Shown: positions 6,898 to 47,461, counted from the first letter of the stretch. The stretch is DNA of 64,000 bases from Candidatus Daviesbacteria bacterium (GCA_028715175.1 JAQUSJ010000001.1:472368-536367), one strand, 5' to 3'. Translations and numbers: made by a program. The notes: a model not told the origin generated them from the letters alone.

Positions 6898-6949
6898 GCA
6901 GTATTACACTTGAGAGTAATATTCAATTCCAGTATAATCTAAACAGTTT

Positions 6950-7023
6950 GCCGCGTTCGTCTAGTGGCCTAGGACGTTGGGTTTTCATCCCAGAAATCAC
7001 GGGTTCGACTCCCGTACGCGGTA
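6950..7023 (+). tRNA. tRNA-Glu (anticodon TTC)
   Basis: Hand-folded cloverleaf: acceptor GCCGCGT/ACGCGGT, D loop with GG, anticodon stem TTGGG/CCCAG, loop TTTTCAT, T loop TTCGACT; no encoded CCA. Confidence 0.8.
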
Positions 7024-7845: not shown

Positions 7846-7880
7846 AAGCTGGTTCTCCTTCGACAAGCTCAGGACTATAG
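7846..7880. repeat. solo copy of the cttcgacaagctcaggac motif (related to the family B TIR region in uvrA)
   Basis: ccttcgacaagctcaggactatag here vs ctttcgacaagctcaggacaagag at 35117-35140. Confidence 0.45.
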
Positions 7881-8782: not shown

Positions 8783-9030
8783 AAGATATTTTTTAACCAA
8801 TCTCGACCTATATGTGACTTTAGGTACTTTTCTCTTTTTAATGCTTCTTGTCTCGTATTGTACTCTTCCTTATAAACTACATTCCATGGGCCCTTATTTA
8901 TTTTAGTATAGCTTTTAATTTTACTAGGTAACAAACCATTATGTCTTGCTAGTCTACTTTCTAAATTCCCTGTTTGCCCAATGTATATTTTACCAGTTGT
9001 TTTACTCTTAATTACATAAACACTGTACAT
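8773..9030 (-). CDS. GIY-YIG nuclease family protein (YhbQ/UPF0213-like, 85 aa)
   Basis: YVIKS..GKIYIGQTGNLESRLARHN matches the GIY-YIG core; 3' end overlaps the tRNA-Lys 5' end by 10 nt. Confidence 0.8.
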   Translation of the reverse strand: MYSVYVIKSKTTGKIYIGQTGNLESRLARHNGLLPSKIKSYTKINKGPWNVVYKEEYNTRQEALKREKYLKSHIGRDWLKNILVR

Positions 9031-9072
9031 AAACTAATAGAACCAATAGCTTAAAAGTCCGGCTGCGCCGGA

Positions 9073-9094
9073 TCTACCGCTGAGCTACCGGACC
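9073..9094 (-). repeat. 22-bp duplicate of tRNA-Lys(TTT) nt 1-22, followed by a CCGGC/GCCGG hairpin
   Basis: tctaccgctgagctaccggacc is identical at 8761-8782 and 9073-9094; the two copies flank the GIY-YIG gene. Confidence 0.65.
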
Positions 9095-9141: not shown

Positions 9142-10104
9142 ATGTTCTTCGGTCTGAACTGGGTTGATTTAGTGATTATCGGAATACTTCTCCTTTTTGC
9201 CCTGGAGGCTTTGGGCCGCCCTTTAATTTTAGAACTATTGGATTTTGCCAGCTTCCTTTTGGCAGGTATCTTATCCTTTAGTTACTACAATCTTCCTGCC
9301 AAATTTTTTGAAAGCCAGTTTCATATTCCCCATGGACTTACCCTGGTGCTGGGTTTTATGACTGTCTGGTTTTTATCTGAAATTGTTTTTTATTTGTTGG
9401 TTAGGTTCATTTTACCAAAGATCCCTAAGTTTAGGATCCTTCGGTCTAAAGTTTTATCTGCAGTTCCGGCAATGCTTAGGAGCTTGATTTTTATTGCCTT
9501 AGTTTTAGTGATGGTGGCAACTTTCCCTATCCAGCCTGCTATTAAAAAAAGCGTTCTGGATTCCAAAATTGGCAGCCGGATATTAAAAGCTGCATACGGA
9601 TTGGAATCTCCTGTCAAGAAAGTTTTTGGAGGAGTGGCTAATGATTCCCTGACTTTTTTGACTATAGAACCCAGGACAAATGAAAAAGTTAACTTGGGTT
9701 TTCAAACTACTCAGGTATCCCTTGATAGCGCTTCGGAAGATAAAATGATTGAGATGGTAAATAAAGAAAGGGTCAGCAGGGGAATCAGGGCCTTAGTGTT
9801 TGACGTTAAGCTTCGGGATATCGCCCGATCTCACAGCGAGGATATGTTTAAAAGAGGTTATTTTTCCCATTATTCACCTGAAGGTCAAACTGTAGCTGAT
9901 CGGGCTTTGAATGCGGGAGTGGATTTTTTGGTAATCGGTGAGAATTTGGCATATGCCCCAAGCGTGGAATTGGCCGGGCAAGGGTTGATGAACTCCCCGG
10001 GCCACAGGGCAAATATACTGTCTGCTGATTATGGAAGAATTGGGATAGGCGTAATGGACGGGGGAGTTTACGGTAAGATGTTTACCCAGGTATTTACAAA
10101 CTAG
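9142..10104 (+). CDS. fusion protein: CvpA-like membrane domain plus CAP/SCP (YkwD-like) domain
   Basis: N-terminal multi-TM region; C-terminal GHRANILSADYGRIGIGV motif of SCP/CAP. Confidence 0.6.
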   Translation: MFFGLNWVDLVIIGILLLFALEALGRPLILELLDFASFLLAGILSFSYYNLPAKFFESQFHIPHGLTLVLGFMTVWFLSEIVFYLLVRFILPKIPKFRILRSKVLSAVPAMLRSLIFIALVLVMVATFPIQPAIKKSVLDSKIGSRILKAAYGLESPVKKVFGGVANDSLTFLTIEPRTNEKVNLGFQTTQVSLDSASEDKMIEMVNKERVSRGIRALVFDVKLRDIARSHSEDMFKRGYFSHYSPEGQTVADRALNAGVDFLVIGENLAYAPSVELAGQGLMNSPGHRANILSADYGRIGIGVMDGGVYGKMFTQVFTN

Positions 10105-31605: not shown

Positions 31606-33636
31606 TTGGCTGTTATGCCGAAATTCCAAATTGTTTCTGATTTTAAGCCAACCGGTGATCAGCCACAAGCCATTGGAAAACTTGCGACAGGTCTCAAAAA
31701 TGGGTCCAAACACCAGGTCCTTTTAGGGGTAACCGGCTCCGGTAAAACTTTCACCATAGCCAATGTTATTGAAAAAGTCCAAAAGCCAACTTTGGTTATT
31801 TCCCACAATAAGACTTTGGCAGGTCAGCTAGCCCAGGAATTTAAATCCCTTTTTCCCCGAAACGCCATTGAGTATTTTGTTTCCTACTACGATTATTATC
31901 AACCCGAAGCTTATATTCCCCAATCCGACACCTATATAGAAAAAGATGCCTCGATTAATGAGGAAATCGAAAAACTCAGGTTATCCACGACTGCCTCGCT
32001 TTTAACGCGCAAAGACACCGTGGTGGTGGCTTCTGTTTCCTGCATTTATAACCTGGGTTCTCCGGTTGAATACGGTCAGGCGATATTGGAAATTGGCAGC
32101 GGTATGAAAGCCGGAAGGCAAGCAGTGATGAAAATCCTGCAGAAAATGTATTACGAGAGAAACGATATTGATTTCCAAAGAGGTGCATACCGGGTGCGCG
32201 GTGATACTTTGGATATTTTCCCGCCGTATTTGGATCAAGGTTACAGGCTACAATTTTTAGGGGACAGGGTAGAGAAAGTAAGTCAACTCGAAGTTGTGAC
32301 AGGTCATGCCACAAAAATGCAAGGAGTACAAATTATTTATCCGGCAAAACACTACATTACTCCGGCACAGCGGATTGTCCCCGGAATAAAACAAATAGAG
32401 AAGGATTTAGAATCTAGAGTCAAGAGTCTAGAGTCTGGTGGAAAGCTGGTAGAAGCTCAAAGACTCTTACAAAGAACCCATTACGACTTGGAGATGATAA
32501 AAGAGTTTGGATATTGTAACGGGATTGAGAATTACTCCCGTTATTTTGATGGGAGAGAGCCGGGTGAGCCCCCTTTTACTTTGATGGATTATTTTCCCAA
32601 GGACTTTTTAACTATTATTGATGAATCCCATATTACTATTCCGCAAATCAGGGGGATGTATAACGGGGACCGTTCCAGAAAAGAAACTTTAATTGATTTT
32701 GGGTTTAGATTACCTTCTGCGCTGGATAACAGGCCTCTTAAATTTGATGAATTCCAGAGAAGGGTTAATCAGGTAATTTATGCTTCAGCCACACCTGATG
32801 ATTATGAAGTGTCTTTGGCGCAAACCTACAATCCCGGTTTGTCAAGCCAAATTCAAACCGGGATTGAAAACGTAAATGGTATAGCAGAGCAATTGGTTAG
32901 GCCTACAGGAATTCTGGATCCGGAAATCAGTATAAGACCCACTCAAGGGCAGATAGAAGATTTAATACGGGAAATCAAATTGCGGGTAGTGAAACATGAA
33001 CGTACCCTGGTAACAACACTGACAAAACGTATGGCTGAAGACTTAACAGATTATCTGGCTGAAAAAGGAATTAAGGTACAGTATTTGCACTCTGACGTGG
33101 CTACGCTTGAACGTTCTGATGTGCTGCAATCCTTAAGACTTGGTGAATATGATGTGATTGTAGGTATAAATTTGCTCAGAGAAGGGTTGGATTTGCCGGA
33201 AGTTTCGCTGGTAGCTATTTTGGACGCTGATAAAGAAGGGTTCTTAAGATCTAAAACTTCCCTTATTCAGACCATGGGACGGGCTGCAAGACACGTTAAG
33301 GGTAAGGTAATCATGTACGCGGAGGCGGTAACCGGTTCAATAAAAGCTGCAATTGAGGAGGTAGAGAGGAGAAGAAAGTACCAGGAAGCATATAACAAAA
33401 AGCACCATATTATTCCCAAAAGTATTGAAAAAGCTTTGAGGGAAAGACTGGTTGAAAAAGTAGAGGAATTGGAAGAAAAGTTGGGTAAAAGGGATCTGAC
33501 AATTGATGACATTCCTCCCAACGAGCGGAAAAAGATGGTTAGAAATCTGGAGGCCCAGATGAGGGAAGCAGCAGAGCTTTTAGACTTCGAAGAAGCAGCC
33601 AAACTTCGGGATCAGATTAAGGAATTGAGCATGTAG
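31606..33636 (+). CDS. uvrB: excinuclease ABC subunit B
   Basis: 676 aa; Walker A GVTGSGKT, DEAD-like helicase motifs, beta-hairpin region, C-terminal UVR domain. Confidence 0.95.
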   Translation: MAVMPKFQIVSDFKPTGDQPQAIGKLATGLKNGSKHQVLLGVTGSGKTFTIANVIEKVQKPTLVISHNKTLAGQLAQEFKSLFPRNAIEYFVSYYDYYQPEAYIPQSDTYIEKDASINEEIEKLRLSTTASLLTRKDTVVVASVSCIYNLGSPVEYGQAILEIGSGMKAGRQAVMKILQKMYYERNDIDFQRGAYRVRGDTLDIFPPYLDQGYRLQFLGDRVEKVSQLEVVTGHATKMQGVQIIYPAKHYITPAQRIVPGIKQIEKDLESRVKSLESGGKLVEAQRLLQRTHYDLEMIKEFGYCNGIENYSRYFDGREPGEPPFTLMDYFPKDFLTIIDESHITIPQIRGMYNGDRSRKETLIDFGFRLPSALDNRPLKFDEFQRRVNQVIYASATPDDYEVSLAQTYNPGLSSQIQTGIENVNGIAEQLVRPTGILDPEISIRPTQGQIEDLIREIKLRVVKHERTLVTTLTKRMAEDLTDYLAEKGIKVQYLHSDVATLERSDVLQSLRLGEYDVIVGINLLREGLDLPEVSLVAILDADKEGFLRSKTSLIQTMGRAARHVKGKVIMYAEAVTGSIKAAIEEVERRRKYQEAYNKKHHIIPKSIEKALRERLVEKVEELEEKLGKRDLTIDDIPPNERKKMVRNLEAQMREAAELLDFEEAAKLRDQIKELSM

Positions 33637-33659
33637 ACAGGTATGTTATAATAATAATT

Positions 33660-33947
33660 ATGGCAGGACCAGGAAAAGAAAGAACAGGGGAAAAACATCC
33701 TTCTAGGACTAGAAGATGTCTGAACTTAATAGAGAGAATAGAAATACTAACAATGGAATTGCCAGGCAGGCCCGCAATTACAGCAAGCCCTTTTGATGGC
33801 TGTGGTATTAAGACTCCTGAACAAGTTGAATCAGAAAGAAGACGGACGAGTGATGTAGAACGAATAAGAGTCCAAAGAAGAGCCCTAACTGAGTCACTAA
33901 AAACTAACGCAATAGATATATTAGGTGTTCCTTTTAGATTACCCTAG
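33660..33947 (+). CDS. hypothetical small ORF (95 aa), possibly non-coding
   Basis: ORF only; R/E-rich, atypical composition; lies in the 700-bp uvrB-uvrA spacer. Confidence 0.2.
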   Translation: MAGPGKERTGEKHPSRTRRCLNLIERIEILTMELPGRPAITASPFDGCGIKTPEQVESERRRTSDVERIRVQRRALTESLKTNAIDILGVPFRLP

Positions 33948-33989
33948 ATAAGCTTCTTTAAAATTTCAATTTATGATATTTATATTAAT

Positions 33990-34193
33990 ATGAATATAGG
34001 AGTAGAATCGAGCATAGAATACAGGAGAAATGGACTTATTGATGCTAGTGTATTTTCTAGTAAACAACCTGGTTTAAATTCAACGGGTTCAACAGTAATA
34101 GATAGAATAGGTGGATTTAGTGGTCCTTCGTGTCGGGATATGATTAAGAGAATTATAAAGGAAGATCCTGAATTTCATAAACGACTCCATTAA
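33990..34193 (+). CDS. hypothetical small ORF (67 aa), possibly non-coding
   Basis: ORF only; no motif. Confidence 0.2.
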   Translation: MNIGVESSIEYRRNGLIDASVFSSKQPGLNSTGSTVIDRIGGFSGPSCRDMIKRIIKEDPEFHKRLH

Positions 34194-34284
34194 AATTTAA
34201 TTTTTTTGGGATAAATACCCCTTTTCAAATCTTGCAAAATGGTGTAAAATAAATCATTCATTTTCGGGAAAAATTCGTCCTTCC

Positions 34285-34347
34285 TGTCATTCTGAGGCGA
34301 AGCCGAAGAATATAATTATATCCTTCACTAATCGCTCAGGATGACAA
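34285..34347. repeat. 63-bp element with terminal inverted repeats, family B copy 1, immediately upstream of the uvrA start
   Basis: tgtcattctgag...ctcaggatgacaa; TIR tgtcattctgag/ctcaggatgaca (1 mismatch). Confidence 0.7.
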
Positions 34348-34351
34348 TAAT

Positions 34352-37300
34352 ATGGCTATAGACAAGATAGTTATCAAAGGAGCTAGAGAACATAACCTTA
34401 AAAACGTTGACCTGGAAATTCCCAAAAACAAGCTGGTAGTTTTAACAGGAATTTCCGGTTCAGGCAAGTCTTCTTTGGCTTTTGATACCCTTTATGCCGA
34501 AGGTCAAAGAAGGTATGTAGAATCACTTTCTTCCTATGCCAGGCAGTTTTTGGGGGTAATGGATAAACCTGATGTGGATTTGATTGAAGGGCTTTCTCCG
34601 GCCATTTCTATTGACCAAAAAGGTGTTTCACATAATCCCCGTTCAACTGTCGGTACGACCACCGAAATCTATGATTATTTGCGGCTGCTTTTTGCCCGGG
34701 TTGGCCATCCACATTGTCCTGTCTGCGGCAGAGAAGTTGCCAAGATGAGCGTGGAACAGATAGTGGAGAAAGTAATAAGTGACAAGAAACAAGTAACAAG
34801 TAAGGGGAAAAGAATTATGATTTTGGCGCCGGTGGTTAAAGATAGGAAAGGGGAATATTCCCAGCTTTTTGAAGACTTTAGAAAAAAAGGATTTTCTAAA
34901 GTTAGAGTTGATGGACAAGTAAGAGATCTTGATGACTCGCCTCGCTCCGCGGGCGGAGCGGGAGATCTGGTGTTAATTAAAACTAACAAACACACGATTG
35001 ATTTGGTAGTAGACAGATTAGTGTTAGATAAAACTGTCATTCTGAGCGAAGCGAAGAATATAAAGTTATATCCTTCGGCTACGCCTCAGGATGACAAGAG
35101 TAAAAATAGTGTTCATCTTTCGACAAGCTCAGGACAAGAGAACAATATGTACTCAAGATTGTCACAAAGTATTGAGACAGCGCTTAAATTAGGCGAAGGA
35201 TCAGTGATTATCTCGCAAGTTCTGGATGCTTCTTTAGAATTTCCACAGTACCCTAAAAAAATGGATGACCGTCTTTATTCGGAAAGGTTTGCCTGTCCGT
35301 TGGACAGCATTTCTCTTCCGGAAGTTGAGCCAAGACTTTTATCTTTCAATTCGCCTCATGGAGCTTGTTCCGTCTGCGCCGGACTGGGTAGTCTTTTGGA
35401 GATAGATGAGACAGCGGTTTTAAATCCAATTCTTTCTATTGCGGAAGGCGGAATACTTCCCTGGTCAAGACTTGCTTCAAGTGATACCTGGTTTAGCAGG
35501 TTGATTGAAGCTGTTGGGAAAAAATACGGTTTTGATTTAAATACCAGACTGGGAAATTTAACAACTGAGGCTAAAAAGATTTTGCTTTTCGGCAGCGGAC
35601 AAGATCAATTTAAAGTGGAAGGTAGAAACAGACAAGGCAGATGGACCCATTTTTATTCGGAGTTTCAGGGCTTGGTAGCTTATCTTAAGCAAAGATATCA
35701 GGAATCGGAATCAGACTTTGTTAAGGCCGAAATTGAAAAATATATGGTGAAGGAAGTTTGTCCGAAATGTAAGGGTGCAAGATTAAAGGATGAGGCTCTT
35801 TCAATCACCATAGACGGATTAAATATTGCTGAAGTCACCAGCCAATCAATAGTGCAAGTGCTGGAATGGATATCACACCTCGGAGGTGTGATATCGGAAC
35901 GCGAAGCGCAAATTGCCACACCGATCGTAAAGGAAATTATATTACGCTTAAGTTTTTTAATTGATGTTGGTTTGGATTATTTAACGCTTGACCGTCCTGC
36001 TTCGACTTTGGCCGGGGGGGAATCACAACGGATCAGGCTGGCTTCTCAAATTGGTTCAGGGCTCTCCGGGGTACTGTATGTCTTAGATGAACCATCCATT
36101 GGTTTGCACCAGCGGGATAACCGTCGCTTGATTGAGACTTTAAAAAAGCTGAGAGATTTGGGTAATACGGTTATTGTTAATGAACATGATGCTGAAACAA
36201 TGGAGGCTGCGGATTTGCTCATAGAGATTGGTCCGGGAGCTGGTGAACACGGAGGCAACATTATCTTTATAGGAACTCCGGAGCAAATGAAAAAAAATCC
36301 GAATTCTTTGACAGGGCAATATTTATCCGGCAAGAAAAAAGTGACTCCGATATTTCATCGGAGTCATCCTGATCCGGCTTTACCGGAGAAGGATCTCTCG
36401 AATAACAGGGCTTTAACCGTATTTGGAGCCACAGAGCACAATTTAAAAAATATCAACGTTTCCTTCCCTTTGGGGCAATTTATTGCTGTGACAGGTGTTT
36501 CCGGTTCAGGTAAATCAACTTTAATTCATGATATTTTGTACAAAGCTTTAGCGCAAAAAATATACAGGTCAAGAGAAAAATCCGGAGGACACAAAGGGAT
36601 GGAAGGAGTAGAAAATATAGATAAAGTTGTTTTGGTGGATCAGTCGCCGATTGGCCGTACCCCCCGCAGCAATCCAGCCACTTATACCGGCGCATTCACT
36701 TTTATCAGAGATTTATTTGCACAGTCTCCTGAAGCGAAAATAAGGGGATATGGACCGGGCAGGTTTTCATTCAATGTCAAAGGAGGAAGATGTGAGGTTT
36801 GCGAAGGCGAAGGTACTCTTAAAATCGAAATGCAATTTTTGCCGGATGTTTATGTTACTTGTGAGTCGTGTAACGGCGCAAGGTATAACAGGGAGGCTTT
36901 GGAAATTAATTTTAAGGATAAAAACATAGCGGAAGTGTTGGATATGACGGTAGAAGAGGCCTTGAGGTTTTTTGAGAATATTCCTCATATTAAAAACAAG
37001 CTGCAGGTTTTATTTGATGTCGGGCTTGGCTATATTAAACTGGGGCAACCGGCCCCCACACTGTCAGGAGGAGAGGCTCAACGGATTAAACTGTCTTCGG
37101 AGCTCTCCAAACGGCCCACAGGGCACACCATGTATATTTTAGATGAACCAACCACCGGACTCCATTTTGCAGACATTGAAAGACTCTTGACGATTTTGCG
37201 AAAACTGGTAAATTACGGCAATACTGTGATCATTATTGAGCACAATTTAGATGTCATTAAAAATACGGATTGGATTGTAGACCTTGGGCCGGAGGGCGGA

Positions 37301-37396
37301 GACAAAGGCGGTAAAGTTGTAGCGGAAGGTACCCCCCGGCAGCTTGCCAAAATAAAATCTTCCTACACAGGCCAGTATTTAGCTAGGATAATTTAA
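34352..37396 (+). CDS. uvrA: excinuclease ABC subunit A
   Basis: 1014 aa; two ABC ATPase modules ([20 protein letters not shown]), LSGGE signatures, zinc-finger cysteines; carries in-frame repeat insertions. Confidence 0.95.
34937..34963. repeat. 27-bp GC-rich palindromic in-frame insertion in uvrA (encodes SPRSAGGAG)
   Basis: tcgcctcgctccgcgggcggagcggga; stem CGCTCCGC/GCGGAGCG; flanked by AGATCT on both sides; 9 aa extra relative to my recollection of E. coli UvrA. Confidence 0.5.
35035..35097. repeat. family B 63-bp TIR element copy 2, inserted in-frame inside uvrA (encodes [21 protein letters not shown])
   Basis: tgtcattctgagcgaagcgaagaatataaagttatatccttcggctacgcctcaggatgacaa; about 85 percent identical to copy 1; 63 bp = 21 codons. 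Confidence 0.7.
35107..35134. repeat. partial TIR-like repeat adjacent to B2 (ctttcgacaagctcaggacaagag)
   Basis: Repeats ctcagga(tga)caagag of the B2 right end; shares an 18-mer with 7850-7868. Confidence 0.45.
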
Positions 37397-37419
37397 AGGT
37401 ATTTTGCTACAATAATCAG

Positions 37420-46661: not shown

Positions 46662-46728
46662 ATTGTTGTATATTCTAACAAATTGAGAGATCCTTGCGCC
46701 ACCGCTAAAGCTACGGCGGCACGCGGTC

Positions 46729-46747
46729 GCTACGCTTCAGAATGACA
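46729..46747. repeat. partial family B element (right TIR portion gctacgcttcagaatgaca), overlapping the annotated start of the downstream ORF
   Basis: Matches the B2 right end ggctacgcctcaggatgacaa. Confidence 0.45.
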
Positions 46748-47461
46748 GTAGTGAGAAGTGTTGTTATACTAATTCTAATGTTCTATTTTATTACTTTTCT
46801 GTTTGAACTTATTTTACTTTTCTTTTTATCCAGGAAATTAATCAATTCTTTAGTTAAATTAATCTACAAATTAACCAGAAGCCATAGGGTTGTAGTGCAT
46901 ATTTTAGCCCTTATATTCTTACCCGGTACAATAATACACGAACTGGCACATCTTTTATTTGCCGGAGTAGTGCTGGTTCCGGTCGGAGAAATGAATGTAT
47001 TACCGGAGATTGAAGAAAAAGGAGTTAAACTGGGCAGCGTACAGATTGGTTATACAGATCCGTTGCGCAGGATGATCGTAGGGGTGGCTCCGGTCCTTTT
47101 AGGTATGATTTTAATTTTTTCAATTTTTCTTCTGGTCAAAATAGGAACCTCTCCCTGGTGGCAGGTGATTTTAGCCATTTACCTGCTTTTTGAAATCGGC
47201 AACACCATGTTTTCTTCAAGAAAAGATATTGAAGGCAGTATTCTTTTTGTAATTTTAATCCTAGCTGTTGCTGCAGCAATTTTAGTAGTTTTATATTTTC
47301 TAAATCCGGCCCTTATTCAAAAAATTTGGCTTTGGTCGAATGGTTTGAATTTGGAGGGAGCTTCAAATTTTTTTGAAACGGCATCAATCTATCTTATTGT
47401 GCCTGTTGTGTTGGATTTTTCAGCCATATTTTTAACAAAACCTTTTGCAGGTAGAAGCTAG
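46742..47461 (+). CDS. polytopic membrane protein with an HExxH motif (putative intramembrane metalloprotease)
   Basis: HELAHLLFAG within a TM helix; six or more TM segments; true start may be a downstream Met. Confidence 0.45.
   Translation: MTVVRSVVILILMFYFITFLFELILLFFLSRKLINSLVKLIYKLTRSHRVVVHILALIFLPGTIIHELAHLLFAGVVLVPVGEMNVLPEIEEKGVKLGSVQIGYTDPLRRMIVGVAPVLLGMILIFSIFLLVKIGTSPWWQVILAIYLLFEIGNTMFSSRKDIEGSILFVILILAVAAAILVVLYFLNPALIQKIWLWSNGLNLEGASNFFETASIYLIVPVVLDFSAIFLTKPFAGRS

Follow-up and report, generated by a model that had tools for sequence, protein, structure and literature searches.

Palindromic repeats before and within uvrA

The window analyzed here is a 64-kb stretch of a 743-kb contig from Candidatus Daviesbacteria, a member of the candidate phyla radiation. 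uvrA, the gene at which most of its repetitive extragenic palindromic (REP) arms are found, played no part in its selection. uvrA occupies positions 34352-37396 on the plus strand, encodes 1014 amino acids (aa) and carries four palindromic inserts. Its product is 100% identical to a protein named "excinuclease ABC subunit UvrA" (P0001) from a Candidatus Daviesbacteria metagenome-assembled genome (MAG), and it aligned to the structure PDB 2r6f with E = 0. We focus on two elements at this gene, B1 and B2 (family B), which are built as head-to-head REP dimers: B1 (34285-34346, 62 nt) lies in the 5′ untranslated region (UTR), and B2 (35035-35096, 62 nt) lies in frame within the coding sequence. 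An initial annotation of the window had located both and put their identity at ~85%, in agreement with our value of 86% (56 of 65 aligned columns); its lengths of 63 bp (34285-34347 and 35035-35097) and its distance of 4 nt between B1 and the ATG are corrected here to 62 nt and 5 nt.

That a palindromic element is repeated at this gene, with one copy before uvrA and one in frame inside it, was borne out by a 12-mer count and by folding. With up to one mismatch allowed, the window contains five occurrences of TGTCATTCTGAG or its complement, compared with 0.32 expected, and none of 100 shuffles reached five; four of these five occurrences delimit the two 62-nt palindromes. Similarly, six REP arms were found in the window against 0.02 expected from shuffles. 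B1 and B2 are inverted REP doublets whose tags point outward, and each folds as one long, near-perfect hairpin, with a minimum free energy (MFE) as RNA of -24.3 kcal/mol for B1 (z = -5.5) and -29.7 kcal/mol for B2 (z = -7.2), and as DNA of -12.3 and -16.1 kcal/mol, respectively. In B1 and B2 alike, only one position between the arms departs from Watson-Crick pairing, and on the sense RNA strand it forms G.U. When the whole window was searched against Rfam at the gathering score, nothing relevant was found, the matches being tRNAs and a chance microRNA match; a search of 33600-35250 at E <= 1 likewise returned no relevant family, and B1 and B2 had no Rfam match.

The left arm of B1 spans 34285-34311 and its right arm, read on the minus strand, spans 34320-34346 and has a degenerate inner mini-hairpin. 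In B2 the left arm reads TGTC-ATTCT-GA-GCGAAGC-GA-AGAAT and the right arm, on the minus strand, TGTC-ATCCT-GA-GGCGTAGCC-GA-AGGAT.

B2 is an in-frame insertion in UvrA

The closest orthologue of the window UvrA, P0002 on locus L001, shares 95% aa identity with it over conserved columns, and the two loci are 90.8% identical at the nucleotide level over 8.9 kb. In L001 the B2 site is empty (GGT AAA AAA AGT GAA CAA), and the window is longer than L001 at this site by 93 nt (31 aa). By our reading of the sequences, compared with locus L002, these 93 nt comprise ~72 nt linked to B2 and ~21 nt of a degenerate solo arm at 35107-35134. This comparison shows that B2 is an insertion gained in the lineage of the window genome, and the segment is absent from element-free relatives, the reverse of the outcome that the initial annotation had named as refuting its proposal. 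The same annotation put the insertion at ~38 residues (~114 bp); relative to the nearest relative it amounts to 31 aa, and the figure of 38 applies only to a comparison with an E. coli-type UvrA, because the baseline loop of Daviesbacteria is already ~6 aa longer.

Translation of B2 from GTC ATT to GAT GAC AAG yields the peptide that had originally been given for it, and the frame GTC ATT ... GAT GAC is the only one of the six reading frames that is free of stops. When the protein was aligned with UvrA of G. stearothermophilus, residues 230 and 233 of chain 2r6f bracketed the B2 site, which follows the strand ...VVDRIIIK and precedes the helix IAARLADSLE. An AlphaFold2 model of the window protein, built from 120 orthologues and of medium confidence (mean predicted local distance difference test score, pLDDT, of 74.6), shows residues 227-236, with which the B2 peptide starts, as a ten-residue helix, and pLDDT falls below 50 at residues 195-213, 237-263 and 666-684, segments that cover or abut three of the insert sites. 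B2 would have been tolerated by landing in a permissive, poorly ordered loop that leads from the last strand of the UvrB-binding domain to the next helix, in the single orientation and frame without stops, giving a UvrA with 21 + 1 extra residues. The protein that carries B2 probably stays functional.

B1 occupies the uvrA leader

B1 sits between a conserved promoter-like -10 hexamer, TAAAAT (34245-34250), and the ATG at 34352, and because it is downstream of this hexamer it belongs to the transcribed leader, that is, to the 5′ UTR. Element-free relatives have a leader of ~30 nt that ends in ttcGGGAaaaatATG and follows the conserved promoter-like site. In the window, ~73 nt separate the GGGA motif from the ATG, and 62 nt of these are B1. 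The ancestral Shine-Dalgarno-like GGGA has been shifted ~73 nt upstream by B1, and a stable hairpin now lies 5 nt before the AUG. The initial annotation had raised the possibility that B1 modifies the uvrA promoter; since B1 lies downstream of the -10 hexamer, an effect on the leader or the ribosome-binding region is more likely, and dampened or otherwise changed uvrA translation or mRNA stability, rather than any action on the promoter, would be the most likely outcome. No match to the LexA (Cheo) box GAAC-N4-GTTC was found near uvrA, although this box may not be the LexA motif of this lineage.

The same place in the leader is occupied in L001 by a different dimer of ~88 nt with the same ends. 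REPs just upstream of uvrA were also found at L203, L136 and L159, of which the last two are other candidate-phyla loci with REPs directly before the uvrA start. A rival reading is that the elements have been co-opted, B1 as a regulatory leader hairpin that controls uvrA translation or mRNA decay and B2 as a peptide or RNA hairpin kept to modulate UvrA or its expression. The position of B1 in the 5′ UTR, with an RNA hairpin of -24 kcal/mol 5 nt before the AUG, would fit such a role, as would the REP-occupied leaders of L001, L203, L136 and L159 and the G.U pair, the only non-Watson-Crick position between the arms of both copies, which forms on the sense RNA. In addition, a published survey of REPs takes its positional data to indicate that many of them are transcribed and act as RNA (PMC3733652). 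However, close relatives carry leader elements that are unlike in family and sequence, and in many relatives there is no such element. Only about one third of the orthologues have the loop insert, its peptide varies by lineage and is predicted to be disordered, and no Rfam family was matched. Furthermore, the B1 right arm has lost its inner mini-hairpin, which suggests that this arm is decaying. We consider co-option quite improbable.

The arms are independent hairpins shared by many phyla

A family-B arm has a (T/C)GTC tag that stays unpaired, a hairpin of 21 nt, ATYCT-GA-[GC-GNA-GC]-GA-AGRAT, and a 2-nt tail. The hairpin has five Watson-Crick pairs, of which A-T and T-A come first, followed by a tandem G.A/A.G step and a GC-closed GNA triloop. 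The tag is TGTC in B1, B2 and a REP at 46690-46746, AGTC in a monomer that begins at 36363, and CGTC in the dimers that occupy the same UvrA site at loci L125 and L203. The tail is CT in the consensus across phyla and AT in B1 and B2.

We scanned one genome per species (596 Gb) with the pattern TGTCATYCTGAG-N30-50-CTCAGRATGACA, which requires head-to-head ends, so that the retrieved set cannot show that dimers predominate. The 24 specified bases of this end pattern are matched in at least 120 genome stretches, which represent more than 12 phyla, where we estimate a chance expectation of ~0.2 in 596 Gb. Additional copies of the element exist, so that the second refuting outcome named in the initial annotation, a lack of further copies, does not hold, and the element is not specific to the window genome. 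Among the matches listed are Clostridia, Bacteroidota, Chloroflexota, Armatimonadota and Gemmatimonadota; Alpha-, Beta- and Gammaproteobacteria and Bdellovibrionales; Verrucomicrobia, Planctomycetota, Elusimicrobiota and Binatia; Patescibacteria, including Uhrbacteria and Saccharibacteria; and cultured isolates of Flavobacterium, Pedobacter and Sphingobacterium. Only eight family-B matches were found in 2.9 million viral contigs, and phages are for this reason not an obvious vector. Literature string searches with the signature peptides and the B-arm DNA gave no match, and those for REPs in Patescibacteria returned nothing relevant.

The 120 stretches listed contain 131 dimers, with the arm consensus TGTCATCCTGAGCG(A/C)AGCGAAGGATCT on either side of a centre that varies and is 10-20 nt long, and family-B elements measure 54-74 nt. 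Of 260 arms, 223 have the strict pattern ATYCT...AGRAT, and the number rises to 230 when the looser AG[GA]AT is applied. In the 223 arms, positions 3 and 19 form a C-G pair in 136 and a T-A pair in 85, with two mismatches (Fisher p = 6e-60), and in 53 of 130 elements the two arms disagree at this Y/R position. Covariation extends to the inner stem (GC-GNA-GC, GGC-GAA-GCC, GCCC-GCA-GGGC and GCC-TTT-GGC), and the N of the GNA triloop is distributed as C 48, A 34, T 11 and G 7. Because pairing covaries within arms even though the two arms disagree, each arm is an independent hairpin. The elements had been presented as having terminal inverted repeats (TIRs), which implies a miniature inverted-repeat transposable element (MITE) with transposase-binding ends; the covariation within arms identifies them instead as self-folding REP hairpins.

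GCGNAGC is a published "mini-hairpin DNA" motif described as extraordinarily stable (PMC13037366), and its presence may hint that structure matters at the level of single-stranded DNA (ssDNA). About 10% of family-B elements are centred in a larger palindrome, a modest excess (3.36 versus 2.60 bases paired among the 10 nt that flank them) without clear meaning.

Relationship to known palindromic elements and mobility

Taken as a whole, B1 and B2 are probably head-to-head REP dimers of the CGTC-tagged superfamily and selfish, small, non-autonomous elements that are mobile via ssDNA hairpins. This superfamily was described by Di Nocera, De Gregorio and Rocco (2013), and includes Neisseria dRS3 and the Rickettsia conorii elements RPE-4 and RPE-6, which are equated with CGTC-4 and CGTC-1 (PMC3733652). 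Its members have a CGTC tag, often TGTC and also CCTC, a stem of 8-9 bp that opens with A-T pairs, a loop of 4-5 nt and an unpaired 3′ tail that is mostly CCA; head-to-head dimers prevail, no transposase is associated with them, and five phyla are reported (PMC3733652). Family B is alike in its tag, the A-T/T-A opening of the stem, its head-to-head dimers, the lack of a linked transposase and its in-frame copies in uvrA. The hairpin is 21 nt long in either case (8 + 5 + 8), whereas family B has G.A/A.G at positions 6 and 7 and a GNA triloop, and its tail is CT or AT rather than CCA. Monomers occur beside the head-to-head dimers. Family B also differs in that it extends to more than 12 phyla compared with the five reported, and that its host here is a bacterium of the candidate phyla radiation. 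Furthermore, the family-B peptides (VILSEAK.. and ..PQDD) are lacking from the survey's list of intragenic peptides (PMC3733652). The best placement of family B is as a new, possibly fifth, family of the CGTC superfamily, though it may be a variant of CGTC-2, -3 or -4.

Rickettsia palindromic elements resemble family B in their mode of action, as in-frame palindromes that are absent from orthologues and are found in a host with a reduced genome. Ogata and colleagues are said to have reported in 2000 that these elements lie in frame in genes that stay functional, with the extra peptide on the protein surface. RPE-1 is ~100-150 bp long and confined to Rickettsia, in contrast to the 54-74 bp and the spread across bacteria of family B.

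We considered whether the elements could be classical MITEs, that is, deletion derivatives of an insertion sequence (IS) mobilized in trans by a DDE transposase that binds TIRs of 12-25 nt. Bacterial MITEs, of which the Neisseria Correia elements are an example, share with family B a short, non-coding sequence with inverted-repeat ends, and they may overlap open reading frames (ORFs) and contribute start codons or signals for regulation. The TG...CA ends and the small, non-coding, repeated nature of family B are in keeping with this origin. However, MITEs typically measure 70-400 bp, are flanked by direct-repeat target duplications and derive from ISs, as in Coxiella QMITE1/2 (PMC5896051), and the 54-74 nt of family B fall under the usual size. 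No target-site duplications were adjacent to the elements, and within 14 nt they were seen at 15 elements, a control level (10.8 +/- 3.2). Nor did the neighbours examined reveal an IS parent: of the gene families within 1.5 kb of 130 elements, only housekeeping ones recur, there was no transposase-like neighbour among 1555 ORFs near elements, and 120 loci contained no transposase and shared no neighbouring gene. A covarying hairpin in each arm, maintained even where the arms disagree, is not needed for a protein-binding TIR, and it would be unusual for IS ends to keep all 24 of their terminal bases unchanged in more than 12 phyla. A MITE origin is therefore highly improbable. No conserved target sequence or motif was found at family-B insertion sites.

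Another model is provided by the REP doublets forming hairpins (REPINs) that are cut and pasted as ssDNA by a single-copy HUH-Y1 transposase encoded elsewhere in the genome, the REP-associated tyrosine transposase (RAYT). This model concerns GTAG REPs (Bertels and Rainey 2011; Nunvar 2010; Ton-Hoang/Messing 2012), and is summarized in general terms in PMC6006769, where the canonical tag GT[AG]G is stated to be required by E. coli TnpA-REP. The build is the same as that of family B, an inverted doublet in a long hairpin with a 5′ tetranucleotide at its foot and no target-site duplication, with a presumed ssDNA logic. In contrast, the family-B tag is TGTC, CGTC or AGTC instead of GT[AG]G; REPINs are usually species-specific, whereas family-B arms are near-identical across phyla; and no cognate RAYT or other Y1 transposase homologue was found in the window or in 120 element-bearing loci. 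The published survey likewise detected no tyrosine transposase with CGTC repeats on its flanks (PMC3733652). A RAYT-like Y1 gene does adjoin uvrA in the closest relative, L001, which would favour such a system; this gene scores below the family cutoff, has unrelated hairpin flanks and is absent from the window. On balance, mobilization by a RAYT is unlikely.

The L001 gene was examined as a candidate mobilizer in its own right. A 750-nt insertion between uvrA and a gene with a transglutaminase domain (L001 5931-6680; the empty site is at 37397-37399 of the window) contains a 216-aa RAYT-like Y1_Tnp protein (L001 5974-6624; PF01797; NF047646 at 55 bits against a cutoff of 80 bits) and is flanked by direct CAACCTTTCAGGTT hairpins, of which no other copies were found in the window or the other 215 loci. 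We rejected it, since these hairpins are unrelated to family B, and both gene and hairpin lack a counterpart in the window and the other loci.

On the preferred reading of B1 and B2 as mobile CGTC-type dimers, family-B elements would spread within and between genomes as small, non-autonomous, selfish palindromic DNAs, and their anatomy suggests that they would move via single-stranded hairpins, with no target-site duplication and no transposase linked to the element. Several points weigh against this reading. Its case for mobility is drawn from anatomy, no enzyme having been identified and no insertion intermediate seen; the 64 kb covered contain only two full family-B dimers, both at uvrA; the G.A/A.G step and the CT or AT tail depart from the 8-9 fully paired stem positions and the CCA tail that have been published; and family B may equal one of the four named CGTC families. 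The enrichment at uvrA beyond the window is partly biased, the loci having been fetched around uvrA. Finally, the neutrality of B2 for UvrA rests on sequence and a model of medium confidence (mean pLDDT 74.6), and the effect of B1 on expression is deduced from sequence.

CGTC-type REPs are widespread and old and have no known mobilizing enzyme. The present data comprise closely related alleles with and without an element, several families that compete for a single nucleotide position, and an arm of 25 nt with a DNA mini-hairpin that is shared across phyla, and they provide a starting point toward the mobilizing enzyme or mechanism and allow a REP excess in excision-repair and SOS genes to be tested. 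In-frame palindromic repeats in repair genes are already known; what appears to be new is how widely the arm is conserved across bacteria, that several families have recurrently occupied one UvrA codon and that REPs are concentrated at uvrA.

uvrA as a probable recurrent site of REP insertion

A metagenome scan for UvrA relatives yielded at least six Daviesbacteria loci. All related loci were fetched around uvrA, and the count of uvrA enrichment that is free of this bias is that of the window alone, where five of the six REP arms are at uvrA and the sixth is the element at 46690-46746. Across 119 Daviesbacteria orthologues, the baseline of the UvrA loop that holds B2 is DRLVLDKKSIHEQTFTSRL, and the loop is expanded in 39 of them. 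At least 22 of the 119 carry dimers that start with (S/T/N)VI and end with ..ND at an identical position, and at least six REP families occupy one UvrA codon: family B, VIASEAKQS..PRND, VIPAKAGIQ..RGND, VIPSERSSRGNLD.., VILG..TTPES..ARMT and VILEGAKR... Intragenic CGTC-1 copies encode the peptides VIPAKAGI, SFPRKRES and LDSRFRGND according to the published survey (PMC3733652), and two of these peptides (VIPAKAGI and LDSRFRGND) are found at the B2 site of other Daviesbacteria UvrA proteins (P0035 and P0080). Fitch parsimony on a neighbour-joining tree of the 119 orthologues requires 30 changes between the filled and the empty state, and orthologue pairs at 95-96% aa identity differ in this state.

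In L002 (family B) and L203 (ATTGC-type) different elements have common flanks, GAYAAA-nnT-GTCATT ... ATGAC-AAGAGTAAWAATAGT. The common reading frame of the dimers is explained by the stops that other frames contain, but the common nucleotide position is not, and this shared position points to repeated targeted insertion or in-place replacement. Insert clusters are also found elsewhere in UvrA, near residues 142-146, 195-204, 510 and 668-687.

As a separate observation, the orthologues P0074 and P0112 come from the same JGI sample (3300071358) and are 96% identical in aa sequence, and one is filled with a REP dimer and the other is empty. This pair is possibly a strain-level insertion polymorphism.

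Beyond uvrA, locus L203 has REP dimers inside uvrB and downstream of lexA, and there is a CGTC-1 monomer in its uvrA leader (REPs at 9014-9079, 6948-7019 and 9967-9989); two uvrA sites are occupied as well, and no REPs were found in the remaining ~15 kb of this locus, so that its REPs cluster around lexA, uvrB and uvrA. The CGTC survey describes intragenic REPs, read in frame, in uvrA, uvrB, uvrC, uvrD, recBCD, polA and dnaE2 (PMC3733652). uvrA in the lineage of the window is a recurrent landing place, comprising the leader and three or four loops, and its concentration of REPs repeats the excess in repair genes noted by Di Nocera et al.

It could be argued that the shared position reflects a single ancient insertion in the UvrA loop of the Daviesbacteria ancestor, followed by divergence in place, gene conversion from other REP copies and many losses instead of repeated new insertions. 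All dimers begin at the same codon, the baseline loop of Daviesbacteria is ~6 aa longer than that of typical UvrA (17 vs 11 residues between DR and RL), filled alleles lack ~6 native loop codons, and some empty alleles resemble element ends (L216 GTTATACATGAAC compared with GTCAT..ATGAC, and L204 GTTATTCGTGAGCAA compared with GTCATTCTGAGCGAA). However, there is little variation among the empty alleles (K[SV]I[HRQ]EQxF), where repeated imprecise losses should scatter; pairs at 95-96% aa identity are split between filled and empty; the empty L001, L215 and L128 are unlike element ends; and the clade of the window, L002 and L203 keeps the whole native loop downstream of the element. We regard a single insertion as distinctly unlikely. 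That empty alleles could be REP scars is an idea of low probability, suggestive for L204, L216 and L126, and not for L001, L215 or L128.

A more specific and doubtful proposal is that the uvrA leader and loops, together with uvrB and lexA, form a landing pad that renews itself and is preferred by REPs of the CGTC type that lack a transposase. By one route, insertion would take place on ssDNA exposed by the strong transcription of SOS and excision-repair genes; by another, a REP scar in the loop (GTYAT..ATGAC) would recruit dimers of any family through microhomology-templated copying or conversion. If true, this would explain the presence of at least six families at one codon, the ~30 gain and loss events and the excess of REPs in repair genes, and would give a first practical handle on the movement of these pan-bacterial hairpins.

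Other palindromic elements in the window and related loci

Two further elements in uvrA had not been noted in the initial annotation, a third REP (36363-36394, plus strand) and a GC-rich hairpin of 27 nt (34936-34962, plus strand). The former is a REP monomer detected by a motif scan, (A)GTC-ATCCT-GA-TCCGGCTTTACCGGA-GA-AGGAT, with a DNA fold of -8.2 kcal/mol (z = -3.0); it is in frame and adds the 9-aa insert PALPEKDLS, which only P0001 carries among 120 orthologues. It falls in the hot spot at residues 668-687, where other Daviesbacteria have other REP-derived peptides. The 27-nt hairpin, CTCGCCTCGCTCCGCGGGCGGAGCGGG, encodes SPRSAGGAG, has a DNA fold of -10 kcal/mol and is absent from L001, with clean flanks (GATGA|AGATC). 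Akin inserts are present in P0084, P0065, P0021, P0050 and P0086, with an expanded one in P0035, and this hairpin represents a separate family of small palindromic elements without a GTC tag.

The partial repeat reported after B2, at 35107-35134, is indeed a repeat, namely a degenerate solo arm of a sister REP family (minus strand; GTCCT-GA-GCTTGTC-GA-AAGAT) that accounts for ~7 codons (VHLSTSSG). It is absent at the same position from L001 and L002 and resembles 7846-7880 (minus strand, intergenic; GTCCT-GA-GCTTGTC-GA-AGGAG). The latter had been described as a partial copy of family B; it is a related arm, and its degenerate sequence belongs to the sister family rather than to family B.

A supposed partial copy at 46729-46747 does overlap a start codon, but it forms one end of a full REP monomer (46690-46746, minus strand) whose inner hairpin is enlarged, situated between tRNA-Lys(ctt), with the REP just upstream of it, and the ORF at 46742-47461. 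The GAATGACA end of this REP provides the predicted ATG of the ORF, which encodes a 239-aa membrane protein. The earlier suggestion that ATGACA can supply start codons therefore applies to this ORF and not to uvrA, for which that ATG is out of frame. The start codon of the ORF may be an annotation artefact or a start donated by the REP, and REP hairpins also yield spurious ORFs and start codons in MAGs of the candidate phyla radiation.

In L001, a 21-nt near-palindrome, GACTCACCTCCGAGGAGTCAA, lies in uvrA at the residue-510 hot spot (L001 4407-4427; VKAHLG insert) and is absent from the window. In locus L080, from a Saccharibacteria MAG, a family-B dimer at 1130-1191 is read in frame as SVILSAPEGSQKDSSASPQNDN, and its host ORF is one that we take to be valyl-tRNA synthetase, identified by eye from its HMGHALN and KMSKS motifs. 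REP hairpins create lineage-specific inserts in conserved proteins such as UvrA and, if this identification by eye is correct, the valyl-tRNA synthetase of Saccharibacteria.

Between uvrB and uvrA lies a 95-aa ORF (33660-33947) that matched no family and is conserved and gene-called in L001. A promoter-like site, TTGAGC-16-TATAAT, is located beside it at 33625-33652.

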